A DNA stretch of 64,000 bases, taken from the NCBI GenBank assembly GCA_964566505.1, contig CAZMIM010000003.1, forward strand, positions 16,463-80,462, given 5' to 3'. Shown here one piece after another: positions 3,084 through 61,155 of the stretch. The stretch is from an uncultured Candidatus Saccharibacteria bacterium (GTDB taxonomy: Bacteria; Patescibacteriota; Minisyncoccia; Phycocordibacterales; PCTT01). The position numbers and the translations under genes are program-made. Position 1 is the stretch's first letter, and each line of letters starts with the position of its first letter. A model generated the notes under the pieces. The model worked only from the letters and a program-made list of their open reading frames with translations, was not told the origin of the DNA and did no database searches.

Positions 3084-4244
3084 TTAAAGGCGTGTATTAC
3101 CATTTGCCTTTAGAGCATCTGGATTTTCCAAAGAGTTTTCAATATGTGATAGTCCTGCTATTCCTATCATGATTGCATTGTCTCCTTGGATGTCTTTTTC
3201 TGGAGATAGAAATGTAACTCCACTTTCTTTGCAAAGATTTTCTAGTGTTTTTTGTATATGTTTGTTTGCACTTACTCCACCACCGAGAATTAGTGTTGAA
3301 GGATTGTATTGTGTGATTGCATGCTTTACCTTTTTCTCTAGTACATCACTTACAGCATTTTCAAACTCAAGTGATATTTCTCCCACCAAATCTTCATTTA
3401 TAGAATCGTGCTTTTTGAGCTCATATAGTACTGCTGTCTTGAGTCCTGAAAATGAGAAGTCCAAATTATCATAATGAAGCATCGGGCGGGGTAGTAAGAT
3501 ATTTGGTGTAACATTATTTTCTCGAGCATTTTGGGCATGTTTTGAAATTTCTGGCCCACCAGGGTATGAGAGCCCTAGCATGCGAGCAACTTTATCAAAA
3601 CTTTCTCCCACGGCATCATCGCGCGTCTCTCCAATGATTTCGTATTCACCCCAGTTTTTTACTAGTACAAGCTGGGTGTGTCCACCAGATATAAGAAGAG
3701 AGAGGAGGGGGAATTCTACTTCTGGAATCTCAAACTGATTCTCTTTTTTAAATACAGAAAAGATATGCCCTTCCATATGATTTACAGGGATGATAGGAAT
3801 ATCCCACAGAGCAGATATTGCTTGAGCAGTAGTTACGCCCACCCATAGCGCTGGCTCAAGACCAGGCCCATATGTGATGGCAATGTGGTCTATGTCAGGC
3901 TTTTTTATTTGAGATGAAAGTGTGATGAGAGCTTCAGCAAGCTCTGGTTCTCTAGATAAAAATTCTCTTACTTTTTCTTTTTTCTCCTCAGATACATTTT
4001 CAACTTCTGCAGAACTTGAGGACATGTCTGCATCGGTTAGAGCTTTTGCAAGGAGAGGAATAATGTTTTTTGCATGCTCTCGCTTTGCGATAGTAGGGTA
4101 GACACCTCCATACTCTTTGTGGAGTTCTATTTGAGAATTAAGTGCATGCGAAAGCACCTCACCCTCTATTTTAGGGCTTGTTTCTCCTTTAAGTATTGCT
4201 ATAGATGTCTCATCACAGCTTGTTTCTATTGCAAGTATGTTCAT
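3084..4244 (-). CDS. tsaD: tRNA N6-adenosine threonylcarbamoyltransferase TsaD (Kae1/Gcp family)
   Basis: MNILAIETSCDETSIAI N-terminus typical of TsaD. Start placed at the ATG at 4242-4244 because the longer ORF would run into the tRNA gene at 4245-4319. Confidence 0.85.
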   Translation of the reverse strand: MNILAIETSCDETSIAILKGETSPKIEGEVLSHALNSQIELHKEYGGVYPTIAKREHAKNIIPLLAKALTDADMSSSSAEVENVSEEKKEKVREFLSREPELAEALITLSSQIKKPDIDHIAITYGPGLEPALWVGVTTAQAISALWDIPIIPVNHMEGHIFSVFKKENQFEIPEVEFPLLSLLISGGHTQLVLVKNWGEYEIIGETRDDAVGESFDKVARMLGLSYPGGPEISKHAQNARENNVTPNILLPRPMLHYDNLDFSFSGLKTAVLYELKKHDSINEDLVGEISLEFENAVSDVLEKKVKHAITQYNPSTLILGGGVSANKHIQKTLENLCKESGVTFLSPEKDIQGDNAIMIGIAGLSHIENSLENPDALKANGNTRL

Positions 4245-4566: not shown

Positions 4567-5742
4567 ATGAAACTCAAGCTCCTCGACTACGACAAGGTTA
4601 GTTTTAATGCAAACATAATACACCTCTACCTAAACCGGCTGTTGATGCAGATTGGTATTGGTATTTTTGGTATTTTTGGAACTATTTTCTTTTATGAGAA
4701 GTTTGGAAACTCAATATTGAAAGTGCTCGTTCTGTATGCGCTACACTATTTCCTTTTTGTGATTGTGACTCATGTTGGTGCAAAGCTTATAGGTCGTATA
4801 GGAATGAAGAAAATGATGATTATTGCTGTTCTTTTCTTCACTCTTTCTGTGGTATCTAGGTTTATGTGGGAAGGAAATCCTGCATTGTGGCTCGTAGTAT
4901 TTTTCTTTGCATTTGCTGTATATAAGATGCTGTATTGGATACCGTATCATGTTGAATTTGCATCCTTTACAGATAAGAAAATGCGCGGAAAACAAATGGC
5001 AGTATTTTCAAATGTATCGCAAGGAGTTCTAGCGCTCACTCCACTTATTGGTGGATTTATTCTATCTATTAGCGGGTATGAAATGCTTTTTCTTATTGCT
5101 TCTGTGATTATATTTATTTCTGTTATACCGCTTTTTTATATAAAAGAAACAAAAGAGAAATATGTTTGGAGTGCACCAAAGCTAGTGGAGAAAATGCTCA
5201 GCAGAAAATATCGTGGAGTTGTGGTTTCAGAGATAGGGAATGGAGTACAAAACGCGGTTGGTTCTGTGGTGTGGCCTATATTTATATTCTTGGTTCTTGA
5301 TGGAGACTATCTATCAGTCGGTGCTATTTCTTCTATCACAATTGTTGCGATTATTGCACTTGGGTTTGTGGTAGGAACATTAATTGATAAGTGGGGAAGA
5401 GCACGAGTACTTAAAATTGGCTCAGCTCTATATACCACGGGTTGGATATTTAAGGTGTTTGTAGGAACCGGATTTGGTGTATTTCTTTCTGATATATATC
5501 ACAACTTTGGAAAGGTGGTGAATAAGCTTTCGTTTGATACATCTGTTTATGATCATGCTGCAGATGAAGGGCACTTTATAGATGAAATCACTGTGCTAAA
5601 GGAGACATCACTTCTGCTTGGAAAAGGGGCGATGTTTATTGCATCTATATTTATTATTTCGATGCTTGGTATTACAGCAACATTCCTATTTGCAGCTATC
5701 GCTAGCATCTTCATGACCCTCATTACTCGGGAGGCAAAATAA
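4567..5742 (+). CDS. multi-pass membrane transporter, probably MFS family
   Basis: 391 aa with about 12 predicted hydrophobic helices and two 6-helix halves; no specific substrate motif recognised. Confidence 0.5.
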   Translation: MKLKLLDYDKVSFNANIIHLYLNRLLMQIGIGIFGIFGTIFFYEKFGNSILKVLVLYALHYFLFVIVTHVGAKLIGRIGMKKMMIIAVLFFTLSVVSRFMWEGNPALWLVVFFFAFAVYKMLYWIPYHVEFASFTDKKMRGKQMAVFSNVSQGVLALTPLIGGFILSISGYEMLFLIASVIIFISVIPLFYIKETKEKYVWSAPKLVEKMLSRKYRGVVVSEIGNGVQNAVGSVVWPIFIFLVLDGDYLSVGAISSITIVAIIALGFVVGTLIDKWGRARVLKIGSALYTTGWIFKVFVGTGFGVFLSDIYHNFGKVVNKLSFDTSVYDHAADEGHFIDEITVLKETSLLLGKGAMFIASIFIISMLGITATFLFAAIASIFMTLITREAK

Positions 5743-13189: not shown

Positions 13190-13290
13190 ACGGCTCATTT
13201 TCAAAATGAGCCATTGGAAATGGCTACAAAGAGCCATATAAAAACTCAACGGCTCAACTTCTAGAAGTTGAGCCGTTGAAAGTTTTTGTT
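13189..13290. terminator. bidirectional terminator cluster: three hairpins including perfect AACGGCTCAACTTC-TAGA-GAAGTTGAGCCGTT
   Basis: Hairpins at 13189-13212, 13221-13236 and 13247-13278, with an A-run on the left and a T-run (TTTTTGTT) on the right. Sits between the convergent hydrolase and rpsA genes. Confidence 0.75.
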
Positions 13291-37414: not shown

Positions 37415-37987
37415 TTGTACATACATATGAGTAATATCTTTAATTTAGCCCTATTGGGTGTTTTTCTTTTCTCAGGAGTTTCCGGCGTTTCAGTGCCGTC
37501 TCCAGTAGTTGATGCGGAGATTATGCCAGTTAATTCTGCCACAATCTCATCACTGAAGCTGACTGGATACAACGCTGTACCCGAGCAAACAAATGAGGAT
37601 CCGCACATTACCGCATCAGGTGCACGATCTAACCACGAGGTTGTGATCGCTCGTTCTAGAGACTTGGCCGGTGATCTTCCATACGGAACTATTGTTGCTC
37701 TCAGCGCAGGTTCTTACAAGGAATCATGTGGATTTGAACAAGTAGAACATCTTATTGGTTATCGTGTGGTAGCAGACACTATGCACCCACGAAAAACGCG
37801 TCAGGTTGATGTCATGTTTGGAACCAACGACACAGTTCGTCTAGGTAAAAAGCATCTCAATCCAGCAATCGTAATGGGAATTTGTGAAGTGTCAGTGGAT
37901 GTCGTAGGTCATATTAGCATCTCCGATATTCCCGATACCCAATATGAACTTGCGATGATGGTAGAAGATCATCTGGCAATGCGATAA
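37415..37987 (+). CDS. secreted 3D-domain (RlpA/MltA-like double-psi beta-barrel) protein
   Basis: Signal peptide; ITASGARSNHEVVIARSRDLAGDLPYGTIVAL resembles the 3D-domain Asp-rich motif. Confidence 0.45.
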   Translation: MYIHMSNIFNLALLGVFLFSGVSGVSVPSPVVDAEIMPVNSATISSLKLTGYNAVPEQTNEDPHITASGARSNHEVVIARSRDLAGDLPYGTIVALSAGSYKESCGFEQVEHLIGYRVVADTMHPRKTRQVDVMFGTNDTVRLGKKHLNPAIVMGICEVSVDVVGHISISDIPDTQYELAMMVEDHLAMR

Positions 37988-38036
37988 AAATTATAATAAT
38001 CACAAAAACACACCGCCAAGGCGGTGTGTTTTTGTT

Positions 38037-38420
38037 TTATTTCTTTTCTTTAAAATCAAGAGAGCATGAGTTGATACAGAATCTTTTTCCTGTAGTTTCT
38101 TCTGGTCCATCATCAAAAACATGACCAAGATGTGCTCCACAGTACGCACAAGAGACTTCTTTTCTTTTCATTCCGTGCGATAGATCTTCTGAGAGTGTGA
38201 TGTTTTCTGTATTTTCAGGTTTATCAAAGCTAGGCCAACCTGTGTGTGAATCAAACTTTGAATCAGAAGAAAAGAGTTCTCTGCCACATACGACACATGT
38301 ATACATACCAGACTCTTTGTGTTTGTAGTATTTGCCCGTGTATGCTGGCTCGGTGCCTTTGTTTTGAGTTACTTCGTATTGCTCGGGTGTGAGCTTTTCT
38401 TTTAGTTCGTCTTTATTCAT
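38037..38420 (-). CDS. msrB: peptide-methionine (R)-S-oxide reductase MsrB
   Basis: CVVCGRELF..GWPSF..RKEVSCAYCGAHLGHVFDDGP has both CxxC pairs and the catalytic Cys. Start at MNKDEL. Confidence 0.88.
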   Translation of the reverse strand: MNKDELKEKLTPEQYEVTQNKGTEPAYTGKYYKHKESGMYTCVVCGRELFSSDSKFDSHTGWPSFDKPENTENITLSEDLSHGMKRKEVSCAYCGAHLGHVFDDGPEETTGKRFCINSCSLDFKEKK

Positions 38421-42366: not shown

Positions 42367-42439
42367 AATTATTTATTATTTCTTTTGTAAAAATATATAT
42401 TAACAAATAAAAGCAGTTATAGAACTGCTTTTATTTACT

Positions 42440-42640
42440 TTATGCTCGACTTACTTTTACTGCGTTTGGTCCTTTTGGACCATCTGCAACTTCAAATGTT
42501 ACTTCATCTCCTGTGTTCAACTCATCGAATGATACTCCATCAAGTTCGTTTGAGTGAAAGAAAAGGTTTTTATCAAAACCTTCTCGAGAAATGAATCCGT
42601 AACCTTTGTCTGTAAGGCCGTCAATTACTCCTTTTTCCAT
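42440..42640 (-). CDS. cold-shock domain protein (CspA family)
   Basis: KGYGFISREG (RNP1-like), FFHSNEL (RNP2-like), GPKGPNAVKV tail. Confidence 0.8.
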   Translation of the reverse strand: MEKGVIDGLTDKGYGFISREGFDKNLFFHSNELDGVSFDELNTGDEVTFEVADGPKGPNAVKVSRA

Positions 42641-42850: not shown

Positions 42851-43312
42851 ATGGAAAAGACCAAAATACAGTGGCGCAAGCCTGCTGAGAAGCTCATCAT
42901 GACATTGGTCGCGTTGTGGCTAATGACATGGTTCCCCGGGTATCTTGCGAACACTTCACTGGTTGAGTCTGCGGTAGAAGACGCTGTTGCTTGGGCAGCT
43001 CCTGAAGAGGAGATGGCTGAAGCTCGGGTAGAAATACCGCTTGCAGACAGCTCATTTTTGGGCCGTACCAGGCGTATGGCAGAGAATGCATGGAATGCTA
43101 CAAGCGAGACTCTTGAGAGCGGTGTAGAGGCTGTGCATAGGGGAACATACTCGGGTATGGAGATACTGCTTCGCGGAATTCTCAAGATGCTCGTTTTTGC
43201 AACAGCATTTGTGGGACTTCTGTTGGTTGCGTATCTCAATGCGCAAGAGTTCATCCCATCGTTTTTCTTGGACTTTCTATTTTCTATTTTCAAGAGAGCT
43301 TTTGTCGGCTAG
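42851..43312 (+). CDS. membrane protein, hypothetical
   Basis: Two TM helices flanking a soluble loop. Confidence 0.35.
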   Translation: MEKTKIQWRKPAEKLIMTLVALWLMTWFPGYLANTSLVESAVEDAVAWAAPEEEMAEARVEIPLADSSFLGRTRRMAENAWNATSETLESGVEAVHRGTYSGMEILLRGILKMLVFATAFVGLLLVAYLNAQEFIPSFFLDFLFSIFKRAFVG

Positions 43313-43388
43313 CTTACAAAAACCCCGCTGAATTCAAATGAATTCAGCGGGGTTAAGCATTGGTCGTAAAATATAGTATAGTTGTTAT

Positions 43389-47160: not shown

Positions 47161-47790
47161 ATGTTAGAGAAAGGGAATACAACACTATATGTTATTATCA
47201 GCCTTTTGATTATTGCGGTTGTTGCTGGTGGAGTATGGCTTTTCACACGAGACAAGGGGCAAACCGATGAGGTGGTAGATGATACCGATATTACAATTGA
47301 TATAAACAGTAACACTATGATATTGCATACAAATAAGGGGAAAATAGTTTTGGAGCTATTTAGAGATAACGCTCCAAACACAGTAGAGAACTTTGAAGAG
47401 CTTTCAAAAGCCGGATTTTATGATGGAACACGATTCCACCGAGTTGTTGATGGGTTCATGATTCAAGGTGGTGATCCATTTTCAAAAGATATTTCACTAC
47501 AAGACAGGTGGGGGACAGGAGGCCCAGGATACACATTTGATGATGAGATTTATCCAGAGAACAACAATGCCAGAGGAACTATCTCAATGGCTAATGCTGG
47601 CCCAAACACAAATGGTTCACAATTCTTTATAAACACTGCAGACAACACATTTCTCAATCCAAAGCACACAGTATTTGGGCGAGTAGTAGAGGGAATGGAT
47701 GTAGTAGAAGCTATTAGTAAGTCAGACACCGACCCAGCAGATCGGCCACTCCAAGAAGTAGTAATAGAGAGAGTAGAAGTAGTGCAATAA
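47161..47790 (+). CDS. ppiB: cyclophilin-type peptidyl-prolyl cis-trans isomerase, membrane-anchored
   Basis: HRVVDGFMIQGGDP, GTISMANAGPNTNGSQFFI, and HTVFGRVVEGMDVV motifs; N-terminal TM helix. Confidence 0.88.
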   Translation: MLEKGNTTLYVIISLLIIAVVAGGVWLFTRDKGQTDEVVDDTDITIDINSNTMILHTNKGKIVLELFRDNAPNTVENFEELSKAGFYDGTRFHRVVDGFMIQGGDPFSKDISLQDRWGTGGPGYTFDDEIYPENNNARGTISMANAGPNTNGSQFFINTADNTFLNPKHTVFGRVVEGMDVVEAISKSDTDPADRPLQEVVIERVEVVQ

Positions 47791-47794
47791 AAAA

Positions 47795-47852
47795 AGGACC
47801 AAATCTTACAGGATTTGATCCTCCTTGAAAGCGCTTTCAGAGCGTTTTTTTG
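47795..47852 (+). terminator. tandem hairpins downstream of ppiB (GGACCAAATC-TTACA-GGATTTGATCC; GAAAGCGCTTTC...T7)
   Basis: Imperfect 10-bp stem followed by a palindrome and a T7 run. Confidence 0.5.
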
Positions 47853-48180
47853 GAATCGTGAGCTCTTACGAGGGCAGTTCAAGTTTTTGATGTAGCAAAC
47901 TTCGTGGGTGCTTACTTGAGTGTGGGTGTCGTGTGCACATGGCAGACGATCTTACACCACCTTTTTGTCCTTACGAGACTTGCTACTGTCTCCATGAGTT
48001 TAGTTGGGCAATCGCGTCTGTGTTACCAGCGCGGATGTGTGGCTAATCTCCGGGCATATGAGTATAATAGCATATACTTCATATTTGTCAATACTTTATA
48101 TATTGTCCAACGGCTCAACTTTTTGTATAGCCGCCTGCCTGCCGGCAGGCAGGTTGAAAAGGGCCTTATAGGGCCCTTTT

Positions 48181-48999
48181 TTAGTTTTTATATTCTTGCT
48201 CTTTTTTACCCTCAGGAATAACTTTTTTAATAACAAGTTCTCCGTCTTTCATTTCAGCCTCGGTAATAATGATTCGTTTATTGTTCTCATCAAAGAAATA
48301 TGCTCTAGGCCACTCACTATACGCTCTTATTTTAAGAAGGTTTTTATATGCGTCATCAGAGAGGTTTATCTCTGCATCCTCTTTTTTAATCTTTGTACAA
48401 AATGTTGCTTGTTCATGGTCTTGCTCCTGTGGCTCTAGCGCTCCTTCAACCCACTCTGTGATAGTTCTACATAATAGCTCTCCACCAGATTCTGCGAGCA
48501 ATGTACGAAGCTCGTTTGCACGCATTGGCCAATATGGAGTATCGACTACTTCTTGCTCAAGTATTGGACCGTGGTCCATTTTCTCATCCATAAGCATAAT
48601 AGTGACACCCGCAAACTCTTCGTCATTTAAAATCTGTGCCTCTATAGGAGAAGCTCCACGCCATTTTGGAAGTAGGGAAGGATGAACATTAAGTGTTTTG
48701 TGTTTTGGCACATAAAGCACTTCTTTTGGCATTATTTTTCCATATGATGCCACCACAGCTATGTCGGGACTATATTCGCTATATTTTGAAAGAAAATCTG
48801 CATCAAGAGATTCTGGTTGCCACACCTCTATATTATTTTTTTCTGCCCACACTTTTACATCAGGTGATTGAAGTTCAAGTCCACGACCGGCTTTTCTGTC
48901 GGGCATTGTTATTACAAGAAATGGCGCCAGGTCATATTCATGAAGTTTTTCTAAAATATTTACAGAGAAATCATCTGTTCCAAAAAATACTAATTTCAT
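48181..48999 (-). CDS. fmt: methionyl-tRNA formyltransferase
   Basis: MKLVFFGTDDFSV, PDRKAGRG, NVHPSLLPKWRGASPI (SLLP motif); C-terminal domain present. Confidence 0.88.
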   Translation of the reverse strand: MKLVFFGTDDFSVNILEKLHEYDLAPFLVITMPDRKAGRGLELQSPDVKVWAEKNNIEVWQPESLDADFLSKYSEYSPDIAVVASYGKIMPKEVLYVPKHKTLNVHPSLLPKWRGASPIEAQILNDEEFAGVTIMLMDEKMDHGPILEQEVVDTPYWPMRANELRTLLAESGGELLCRTITEWVEGALEPQEQDHEQATFCTKIKKEDAEINLSDDAYKNLLKIRAYSEWPRAYFFDENNKRIIITEAEMKDGELVIKKVIPEGKKEQEYKN

Positions 49000-49033
49000 T
49001 TTTGTATTATCATTTTTATTCATAATATACTTT

Positions 49034-53742: not shown

Positions 53743-53744
53743 AT

Positions 53745-53812
53745 TAAAAACAGCTCATATATGAGCTGTTTTTTTATATAAAAAAGCGGAGGTCCAAGTT
53801 TTGGACCTCCGC
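53745..53812. terminator. two adjacent hairpins (ACAGCTCAT-ATA-TGAGCTGTT plus T-run; GCGGAGGTCCAA-GTTT-TGGACCTCCGC)
   Basis: Perfect stems at the boundary between the rseP operon and the GC-rich island. Confidence 0.7.
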
Positions 53813-53836
53813 GTGGCGGAATGTAGTTTTCCGAGG

Positions 53837-54163
53837 TTACGTAGGGTGTGTTCTGAAAGACCATCGTATTGGCGTAGGTCTCCAGAACACAATACCGACA
53901 ACTATCTGCTGAATTGCATTCCAGATACGTTGAAGCTGTTCCTGGGCTGTGATTCGTTTGTGCAGAGGCAGTAACGCTTGATAGTTTACAGCGCCGTCGA
54001 AACGGTCGTCCGTACCATTTGTTAATGCCGCATCAAAAGAGACCAGGTAGATCTCATACGTATCTGGATAGGCCGTGTCTTCCGACATGAGCCGTTCGTA
54101 TTCAGATAATAGGTCGATTCCTCCGTGAACCCCAGGTAGTAGCAGTGCGAGCGTCGCAAGCAT
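53837..54163 (-). CDS. hypothetical protein encoded in GC-rich island
   Basis: 108 aa ORF with GC-rich codon usage unlike the host genes; no motif. Confidence 0.3.
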   Translation of the reverse strand: MLATLALLLPGVHGGIDLLSEYERLMSEDTAYPDTYEIYLVSFDAALTNGTDDRFDGAVNYQALLPLHKRITAQEQLQRIWNAIQQIVVGIVFWRPTPIRWSFRTHPT

Positions 54164-54283
54164 ATACCGTGTGGGCTTTTGGTTTTCCGGTAAAAGAACA
54201 TTCGACCAAAAGACATCTGACGCAGTAATGCATCTCTTAGGGTCGGACTATCTAATATACAAAAAAGAATAAAATAATGCAAC

Positions 54284-54335
54284 AAAAAAGCGGGGCTCAG
54301 AACTGAAACTGTGTTCAGAACTGAACCCCGCAAGA
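54284..54335 (-). terminator. intrinsic terminator for the island secreted-protein gene
   Basis: GCGGGGTTCAGTTCTGAACACAGTTTCAGTTCTGAGCCCCGC hairpin plus TTTTTTGTT on the minus strand. Confidence 0.65.
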
Positions 54336-54407
54336 TTCATGTAATGCCCAATTACCCTAGACTTTCAAGGGGTGGTGGTTACGGAAGACTCGGCCGAGAA
54401 CCAGGAG

Positions 54408-61081: not shown

Positions 61082-61155
61082 TTAGCCACTAGCGACTAGG
61101 GGCTAAGAAAACCAACGGCTCAACTTATAGAAGTTGAGCCGTTGGTTTTTGTTTG
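61082..61155 (+). terminator. double hairpin terminator after greA (TTAGCC..GGCTAA; CCAACGGCTCAACTT-ATAG-AAGTTGAGCCGTTGG plus T-run)
   Basis: Second hairpin is a 17-bp perfect stem of the GCTCA..TGAGC family followed by TTTTTGTTT. Confidence 0.8.

Follow-up and report, generated by a model that had tools for sequence, protein, structure and literature searches.

The locus and its setting

The stretch of DNA analysed here, called the window, is 64,000 nucleotides (64 kb) long. Its setting is a Paceibacteria (Parcubacteria/Campbellbacteria-like) genome of the CPR bacteria, and the best relatives of its methionyl-tRNA formyltransferase (Fmt) belong to MAGs of that group. Two sets of genes converge at the locus. 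On the plus strand, the duf167-hpf-ppiB operon ends with ppiB (47161-47790), an ORF for a cyclophilin-type peptidyl-prolyl isomerase that matches PF00160 at E 5.6e-55. On the minus strand, fmt (48181-49023) is the last gene of def-arsR-fmt. Its product matches PF00551/PF02911 and is 100% identical to the 280 aa protein P0001.

Between them lies a non-coding gap of 390 nt (47791-48180), with ppiB as its left and fmt as its right boundary. The initial annotation of this DNA had described a non-coding region between convergent ppiB and fmt, lacking any credible ORF. Both statements hold. The genes on either side are supported by Pfam, and the 105-aa frame at 47904-48221 has no Pfam match. This frame crosses the promoter, the palindrome and the terminator described below, as well as the 3' end of fmt. 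About 130 nt of the region as first delimited (48058-48182) consist of the promoter and the terminator stack of fmt, and lie outside the body of the RNA proposed here.

The region had also been called GC-rich and repetitive. The rise in GC content is only modest, at 46.6% for the gap compared with 40.4% for the whole window, with 49.8% in the segment 47855-48057. The repeat CTTACGAG does occur twice in the gap, but its frequency is at chance level (3 copies in the window against 1.2 expected, a number reached in 13 of 100 shuffles). GTGGGTG is likewise present twice; its enrichment is a property of the window (11 copies against 3.3 expected) and not of the gap.

The order of genes around the gap is well conserved. 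An arrangement of def-(arsR)-fmt facing (ppiB)-hpf-duf167 is kept across approximately 170 related loci. Among at least 55 relatives, the distance between the fmt side and the hpf side lies anywhere between 0 and over 700 nt, and its content depends on the lineage. The Fmt of the window itself is a singleton among 5.8 billion proteins, its nearest relatives being only 62% identical.

Hairpins downstream of fmt

Transcription of fmt would run into three successive hairpins (48182-48109). The first, at 48156-48182, is a bidirectional intrinsic terminator of the form AAAAGGGCC-loop-GGCCCTTTT(TT); for the minus strand its dG is -13.9 kcal/mol and its tail UUUUC. Since its pairing arms GGGCC/GGCCC lie within AAAAGGGCC/GGCCCTTTT, it is able to act both ways. 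Because it begins right at the stop codon of fmt, it is read as the fmt terminator. The hairpin and its T6 run had been recognized before, one nucleotide away from their true position, as a canonical terminator; the end of fmt transcription is a better reading for it than the 3' end of the RNA.

The second hairpin is a perfect 20-nt palindrome, CCTGCCTGCCGGCAGGCAGG, at 48134-48153 (dG -18.5 kcal/mol). It is unique in the window, where 0.01 occurrences are expected, and it too had been placed one nucleotide off. Hairpins of the type CCTGCC..GGCAGG, which resemble it, are present in the gaps of relatives (L034).

The third hairpin (48109-48135, minus strand) has a dG of -11.4 kcal/mol and a z-score of -3.7. 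It holds a half-copy of a dispersed hairpin arm, CAACGGCTCAAC, whose real position is 48108-48119, again a shift of one nucleotide. The arm is fused straight to a TTTTTG tail of its own. Five such arms occur in the window against 0.25 expected. Near-identical full hairpins, CAACGGCTCAAC-N8-GTTGAGCCGTTG followed by a T-run, are found at 13247-13278 and 61113-61144, and these are ordinary terminators. The segment 48108-48119 looks like a deleted copy of such a hairpin in which the loop and the second arm were lost. To this extent the earlier suggestion of a decayed element is apt, but it does not extend to a decayed gene, as no pseudogene signal is seen. When 2474 ORF fragments from the same position in relatives were compared with the gap by tblastn, only noise was obtained, with no trace of the small protein genes found in some of them.

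The window's segment has one other record, a DNA contig of 1669 nt from Logan (SRR15635848; L001). This contig starts 57 nt upstream of duf167, is identical to the window over 47791-48160, and breaks at position 48160, a point just beyond the 20-nt palindrome where the adjoining terminator hairpin starts. Most likely the assembly broke there at the cluster of hairpins.

A promoter on the minus strand

Beyond the three hairpins in the direction of ppiB, the minus strand carries a sigma-70-type promoter at 48064-48091. It has the form TTGACA-16 nt-TGc-TATTAT, that is, an extended -10 promoter with 11 of 12 matches plus the TG. An A/T-rich tract resembling an UP element lies upstream of it (48092-48106), and the predicted transcription start is at approximately 48057-48059.

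The perfect pattern TTGACA-N16/17-TGnTAnnnT occurs at 5 sites in the 64 kb, compared with 0.21 expected. The other four of the five all lie just upstream of ORFs and in the correct orientation, so that in this genome the pattern can be taken to mark promoters reliably. No promoter was found on the plus strand of the gap.

The putative RNA and its terminator

The sequence that follows the promoter, the putative RNA body (47830-48057, minus strand), is about 230 nt long. Its composition is A 33%, C 28%, G 21% and U 18%, so that 61% of it is C+A, and it contains the motifs CUCGUAAG and CACCCAC twice each. Near its 5' end, a stem-loop at 47990-48055 forms from a true inverted repeat and is stable on either strand (z-scores of -3.7 for minus and -3.3 for plus). 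The minus-strand body as a whole folds no better than shuffled sequences (z -0.57).

At the far end of the gap, a hairpin at 47829-47789 is proposed as the intrinsic terminator of the minus-strand RNA. Its 10-bp stem GGAUCAAAUC/GAUUUGGUCC (47821-47796) encloses the loop CUGUAA and is followed by U7 (47795-47789), a run that overlaps the ppiB stop codon. The minus-strand hairpin has a dG of -17.1 kcal/mol and a z-score of -4.4, while its plus-strand equivalent reaches only -10.9 kcal/mol. The difference in stability comes from a U.G pair of the minus strand, whose plus-strand counterpart is an A.C mismatch. The U tail, too, is found on the minus strand only; the plus-strand tail is not U-rich. 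A simple terminator scanner missed this hairpin, probably because the stem reaches into the U-run.

Next to it on the plus strand is a weak hairpin, GCGCUU/GAGCGU followed by a run of U6-7 (47831-47851, dG -6.0 kcal/mol), which is the probable terminator of ppiB. The terminators of the minus-strand RNA and of ppiB stand back to back.

The gap contains, on one strand, a promoter of its own and an intrinsic terminator with no credible ORF between them, as is generally expected of a free-standing sRNA gene. The initial annotation had considered such a gene. It is still the best reading, although not in the form proposed, since the transcription signals are on the minus strand. From these sequence signals, the gap has a somewhat better than even chance of being a free-standing, species-specific orphan ncRNA gene on the minus strand, in the orientation of fmt. 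The predicted RNA would be approximately 265 nt long, starting near 48057 and ending at the 47829-47789 hairpin with its U7. From 5' to 3' it would comprise a stable stem-loop, a C+A-rich middle of weak structure with the CACCCAC and CUCGUAAG repeats, and the terminator hairpin.

A transcript from this promoter might instead encode a small protein. Two candidates exist on the minus strand, a 27-aa peptide, METVASLVRTKRWCKIVCHVHTTPTLK (47995-47912), and a 24-aa peptide (47940-47866), and small protein genes are found at the same position in two related loci (L007 and L174). This explanation is highly improbable. No ORF in the body exceeds 27 aa or has a Shine-Dalgarno sequence at the proper distance, whereas the other genes here have GGAG-type sites. 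The peptides are unlike any ORF at the same position in relatives. Furthermore, a comparable 22-codon frame in two of these relatives (L083 and L172) differs by 5 non-synonymous changes and 1 synonymous change.

Folding of the plus strand

A conflicting folding signal lies on the strand opposite to the promoter. Within 47855-47988, two G.U-rich hairpins, H1 (47858-47915) and H2 (47917-47959), are specific to the plus strand, with z-scores of -4.2 to -4.4 compared with -0.2 to -1.7 on the minus strand. A long-range stem that pairs 47892-47905 with 47973-47986 is an alternative to H1 and H2. The plus-strand segment 47855-48057 folds at -77.7 kcal/mol (z -3.75), and 47855-47960 has a z-score of -4.4 compared with -0.2 on the minus strand. 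Each of the two copies of CTTACGAG can pair with 47900-47908, so that they are alternative partners.

These values have to be read against the rest of the window. When both strands of the whole window were cut into 106-nt tiles, z-scores of -4 or below were found in 1.9% of the tiles. The fold signal of 47855-47988 is in the top 2% or so of the tiles and is not unique, and the region had been chosen by eye for its hairpins. The most structured tiles, at 53743-53848, 37949-38054, 42401-42506, 43143-43355 and 54273-54378, have z-scores of -5 to -11.5. These strongest-folding tiles are probably terminators between genes.

The fold could mean that the functional product is a structured plus-strand RNA. 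Such an RNA would be either a long 3' UTR of ppiB, made by read-through of the weak hairpin at 47831-47851, or an independent RNA that ends at 48156-48182. The segments termed a, b and e, in which the CTTACGAG repeats compete for CUUCGUGGG, would then form alternative structures, and the minus-strand promoter would serve an antisense partner. Besides the z-scores and the two competing repeats, the T6 terminator at 48156-48182 fits this proposal. It is nevertheless quite unlikely to be correct. The plus strand has no promoter, and two hairpins, one of them with a U-run, separate the region from ppiB. The z-scores are shared with other tiles and belong to a segment selected by eye. In relatives, the equivalent strand is unstructured (z -0.98 and -1.66) and has no promoter in that orientation.

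Known RNA families

The initial annotation had pointed out that tmRNA, 6S RNA and RNase P RNA are not otherwise visible in the window, and had raised the possibility that the gap encodes one of them. The observation is correct, as none of the three is found in the 64 kb with Rfam at the gathering score. The possibility itself fails, because neither Rfam (E<=10) nor ARAGORN gives a match to any of them on either strand of the gap.

In the window, the only Rfam matches at the gathering score were a tRNA and a group I intron. With the threshold relaxed to E<=10, 16 matches were obtained for 47700-48300 on both strands. In the gap these are only terminator-shaped chance matches (Atu_C8, SAM-I/IV, ncr1241), and no 6S family is among the 16. 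The segment 47866-48088 has no match at all at this threshold. For tmRNA, ARAGORN reports only a tRNA-Glu, and the tmRNA models have no match at the gathering score or at E<=10. RNase P models (RF00010/RF00011) do not match the gap, and the roughly 230 nt of the transcribed body fall short of the 300-400 nt of that RNA. Models of SRP RNA have no match in the gap at E<=10 on both strands. A riboswitch or another cis-acting leader can be ruled out for the gap, since on both strands the 3' end of the convergent gene follows.

These results bear on the idea of a copy of a housekeeping RNA (6S, tmRNA, RNase P or SRP RNA) too divergent for current models to detect. A strong promoter, a length of approximately 200-270 nt and a free-standing gene would suit such an RNA, as would the fact that none of the four is found elsewhere in the 64-kb window. 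Even so, the idea is barely credible. The families give no match at E<=10 on both strands, ARAGORN is negative, and the RNase P model does succeed in this clade (L056, at 111.7 bits). The MFE and centroid folds of the gap RNA on both strands are multi-branched with unpaired ends, and do not form the rod with a central bubble that is typical of 6S RNA. Finally, the sequence is not kept even in close relatives, unlike that of an essential RNA.

Two other features lie near the locus. One is the gene for tRNA-Asn(GUU) (46330-45992, minus strand), which is split by a group I intron (46295-46040, 80.9 bits in Rfam) inserted inside the anticodon (GU|U), and which ARAGORN missed. An 18-nt perfect inverted copy of the tRNA-Asn 5' end (46358-46341) is located just upstream of the gene. 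The syntenic tRNA-Asn is intact in L090, L091 and L010, while that of L083 also has a group I intron, adjoined by an HNH ORF.

The other is the leader of def-arsR-fmt (50026-49843, minus strand). It is about 180 nt long, has 54% GC and a TTGACA box, and contains GGAAAGUCC. Just before the def start codon there is an attenuator-like hairpin, AAGCGCCCG...CGGGCGCUU, followed by UGUUUUU (49937-49870). No Rfam family matches the leader at E<=1. This result gives no support to a likeness to a ZTP riboswitch or to the P4 motif of RNase P. The leader may be an uncharacterised cis-regulatory element.

The same position in related genomes

Evidence for a functional RNA can also be sought in the fmt-ppiB gaps of relatives, referred to here as the slot. 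In the closest of these (Fmt 58-62% identical; L083/L082, L172, L090 and L091), the slot has a promoter of the type TTGACA(AA)...TGnTAnnnT in the orientation of fmt. In L083, L172, L090 and L091 the promoter is followed by non-coding sequence and then by a hairpin with a U-run. L092 has an identical promoter type and orientation downstream of fmt, and its contig ends before any terminator or ppiB is reached. Under a strict definition, the promoter is found in the forward direction in 6 of 55 distinct gaps and in the reverse direction in none of the 55. All six belong to loci that contain ppiB, five of these being from the relatives with the closest Fmt (58-62% identical). The unit of the window has the same position and orientation: it lies downstream of fmt on the same strand, carries the TTGACA/extended -10 promoter and ends at the ppiB stop codon.

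In one lineage the slot holds a conserved sRNA of approximately 240 nt that has a promoter and a terminator to itself. Its coordinates are 4947-5190 in L083 and 3441-3672 in L172, and it is also found in L082, L084, L085, L093 and L094. The Fmt proteins of L083 and L172 are 81% identical. Their RNAs are 83% identical from transcription start to terminator, compared with 61% upstream of the -35 box and 57% at third codon positions of fmt. The changes in the RNA include wobble-compatible and compensatory ones. On this evidence, the slot contains a functional RNA in at least one related lineage. As judged from this comparison of sequences, the L083/L172 RNA shows purifying selection. It has no match in Rfam.

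The RNA of the window is not a recognizable homolog of it. When the putative RNA bodies of the window and of five relatives were aligned locally in pairs, the z-scores of the window were at most 1, with 0.5 against L083/L172. An HMM of the L083/L172 RNA (nhmmer) did not find the window RNA. A covariance model built from L083, L172 and L082 (R1) scored at most 2.5 bits in the gap with filters off, and its search of the whole window gave no match in the gap. Comparative alignment had been suggested as a check with the initial annotation. The outcome was negative: the gap body has no homolog in 176 related loci other than the identical contig L001, and blastn and nhmmer added only fragments of the promoter and palindrome. 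Comparison with phages and plasmids gave no match, and no paralog of the gap sequence exists in the window. The nearest Fmt is only 62% identical, and conservation is seen only in the analogous RNA of L083/L172.

The slot has a varied content in other relatives. In some it is empty, with a gap of 0-60 nt. In L007, a TTGACA promoter precedes the gene of a hydrophobic peptide of 49 aa (approximately 4889-5038, plus strand), and in L174 the slot encodes a 123-aa Cys-rich protein (3391-3762, plus strand) without Pfam domains, in which a CxxC...W motif is repeated internally. L090 has a larger promoter-driven non-coding unit of approximately 480 nt between fmt and ppiB (3165-3650), and next to it a second sRNA-like unit of approximately 160 nt (3655-3850), where a 115-aa ORF is called on the opposite strand. 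The non-coding unit downstream of fmt in L092 (1330-1505) has local similarity to the L090 unit (z 4.9). The shared similarity includes GNRA hairpins of the GUGGGGUAAC-UCCGUAAGGAG type, with no Rfam match at the gathering score.

Four different bodies are therefore seen between fmt and ppiB, those of the window, of L083/L172, of L090 and of L091, and L092 has a further unit downstream of fmt, on a contig that stops short of ppiB. One model for this pattern is that the gap is a conserved 'sRNA slot' in a subclade of Paceibacteria. In this model the position and orientation of the promoter would be fixed, while the body would be replaced, or would diverge beyond recognition, in each lineage. The recurring promoters are consistent with it, but the model is tentative and rather doubtful. 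In a variant of it, both strands of the window may be expressed as a sense/antisense pair.

Another model is that the gap is a non-functional spacer. The slot would then be a variable site that collects terminator hairpins, decayed copies and remains of lost genes, and the promoter would be a relic or a source of pervasive transcription. The wide range of gap lengths agrees with this, as do the lineage-specific contents (sRNA-like units as well as the ORFs of L007 and L174), the half-copy arm at 48108-48119 with its resemblance to a deleted terminator hairpin, and the body without homologs. The spacer model, although the foremost competitor of the sRNA gene, is nonetheless unlikely. A perfect extended -10 promoter, expected by chance only 0.21 times per 64 kb, together with a matched strand-specific terminator, would be unlikely to last unused. 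The nearest lineages show this architecture again, one of them with an RNA under purifying selection. No trace of a degraded ORF is present, and the GC content of 50% is higher than the usual intergenic level of the genome. An sRNA gene on the minus strand is thus the preferred reading of the gap.

Possible function and significance

The mode of action of the putative sRNA can be proposed from its layout. It would most likely be a trans-acting regulator, whose exposed C/A-rich repeats pair with G/U-rich segments of mRNAs. Alternately, these repeats might titrate an RNA-binding protein. A target search with RNAduplex, a crude method, covered the starts of the window's 60 genes and gave no target better than shuffled controls.

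CPR/Patescibacteria are uncultivated and have reduced genomes. To our knowledge, based also on a search of the literature, their regulatory RNAs are essentially uncharted, and we know of no sRNA targets or chaperone in CPR bacteria. Literature on CPR sRNAs and 6S RNA and on the data set SRR15635848 yielded nothing usable. The window locus is a concrete candidate for a CPR sRNA, a lead rather than a discovery. The recurring units of promoter, RNA and terminator in the slot provide a comparative handle on the origin and replacement of sRNA genes. If the slot model were true, it would provide comparative evidence for sRNA genes in CPR bacteria and for their rapid turnover, beside genes related to translation (def-fmt, hpf).

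Comparison with known systems

Stacked or bidirectional terminators of convergent genes are one system with which the gap can be compared. The segments 48109-48182 and 47789-47851 are exactly such structures, with hairpins flanked by A- and T-runs, and the dispersed CAACGGCTCAAC hairpins at 13247 and 61113 have the same role. Terminators alone, however, leave a perfect promoter and 230 nt of ORF-less sequence with 50% GC unaccounted for.

6S RNA (RF00013 and its relatives) is similar in size class, in its strong housekeeping-type promoter and in being a stand-alone gene. The window RNA differs from it in having no model match at E<=10, a branched fold with free ends, and no conservation among relatives.

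Trans-acting sRNAs of the RsaE/RoxS type in Firmicutes have their own promoter, a Rho-independent terminator and C-rich seed motifs. The window unit shares with them a free-standing gene with a promoter and a terminator. It also shares repeated C-rich motifs in poorly paired regions, which could pair with G-rich mRNAs. It differs in its motifs, which are CACCCAC and CUCGUAAG instead of UCCC, in being about twice as long, and in having no Rfam match.

A counterpart in metagenome contigs of related Paceibacteria is the sRNA of L083 (JGI Ga0210019_1000113) and L172 (GCA_964538115.1, CAZIEF010000023.1), which has the same slot, orientation and promoter design as the window unit. The common design is TTGACAAAT...TGcTAnnAT with an A-rich tract upstream. 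In both RNAs a 5' stem-loop near the start is followed by an unpaired CA-rich stretch in the middle and by a terminator, whose hairpin has a GNRA-like loop and precedes a U-run. The L083/L172 RNA has a total length of approximately 240 nt. The transcribed bodies are different in sequence and structure, so that the two RNAs are analogous by position and layout only.
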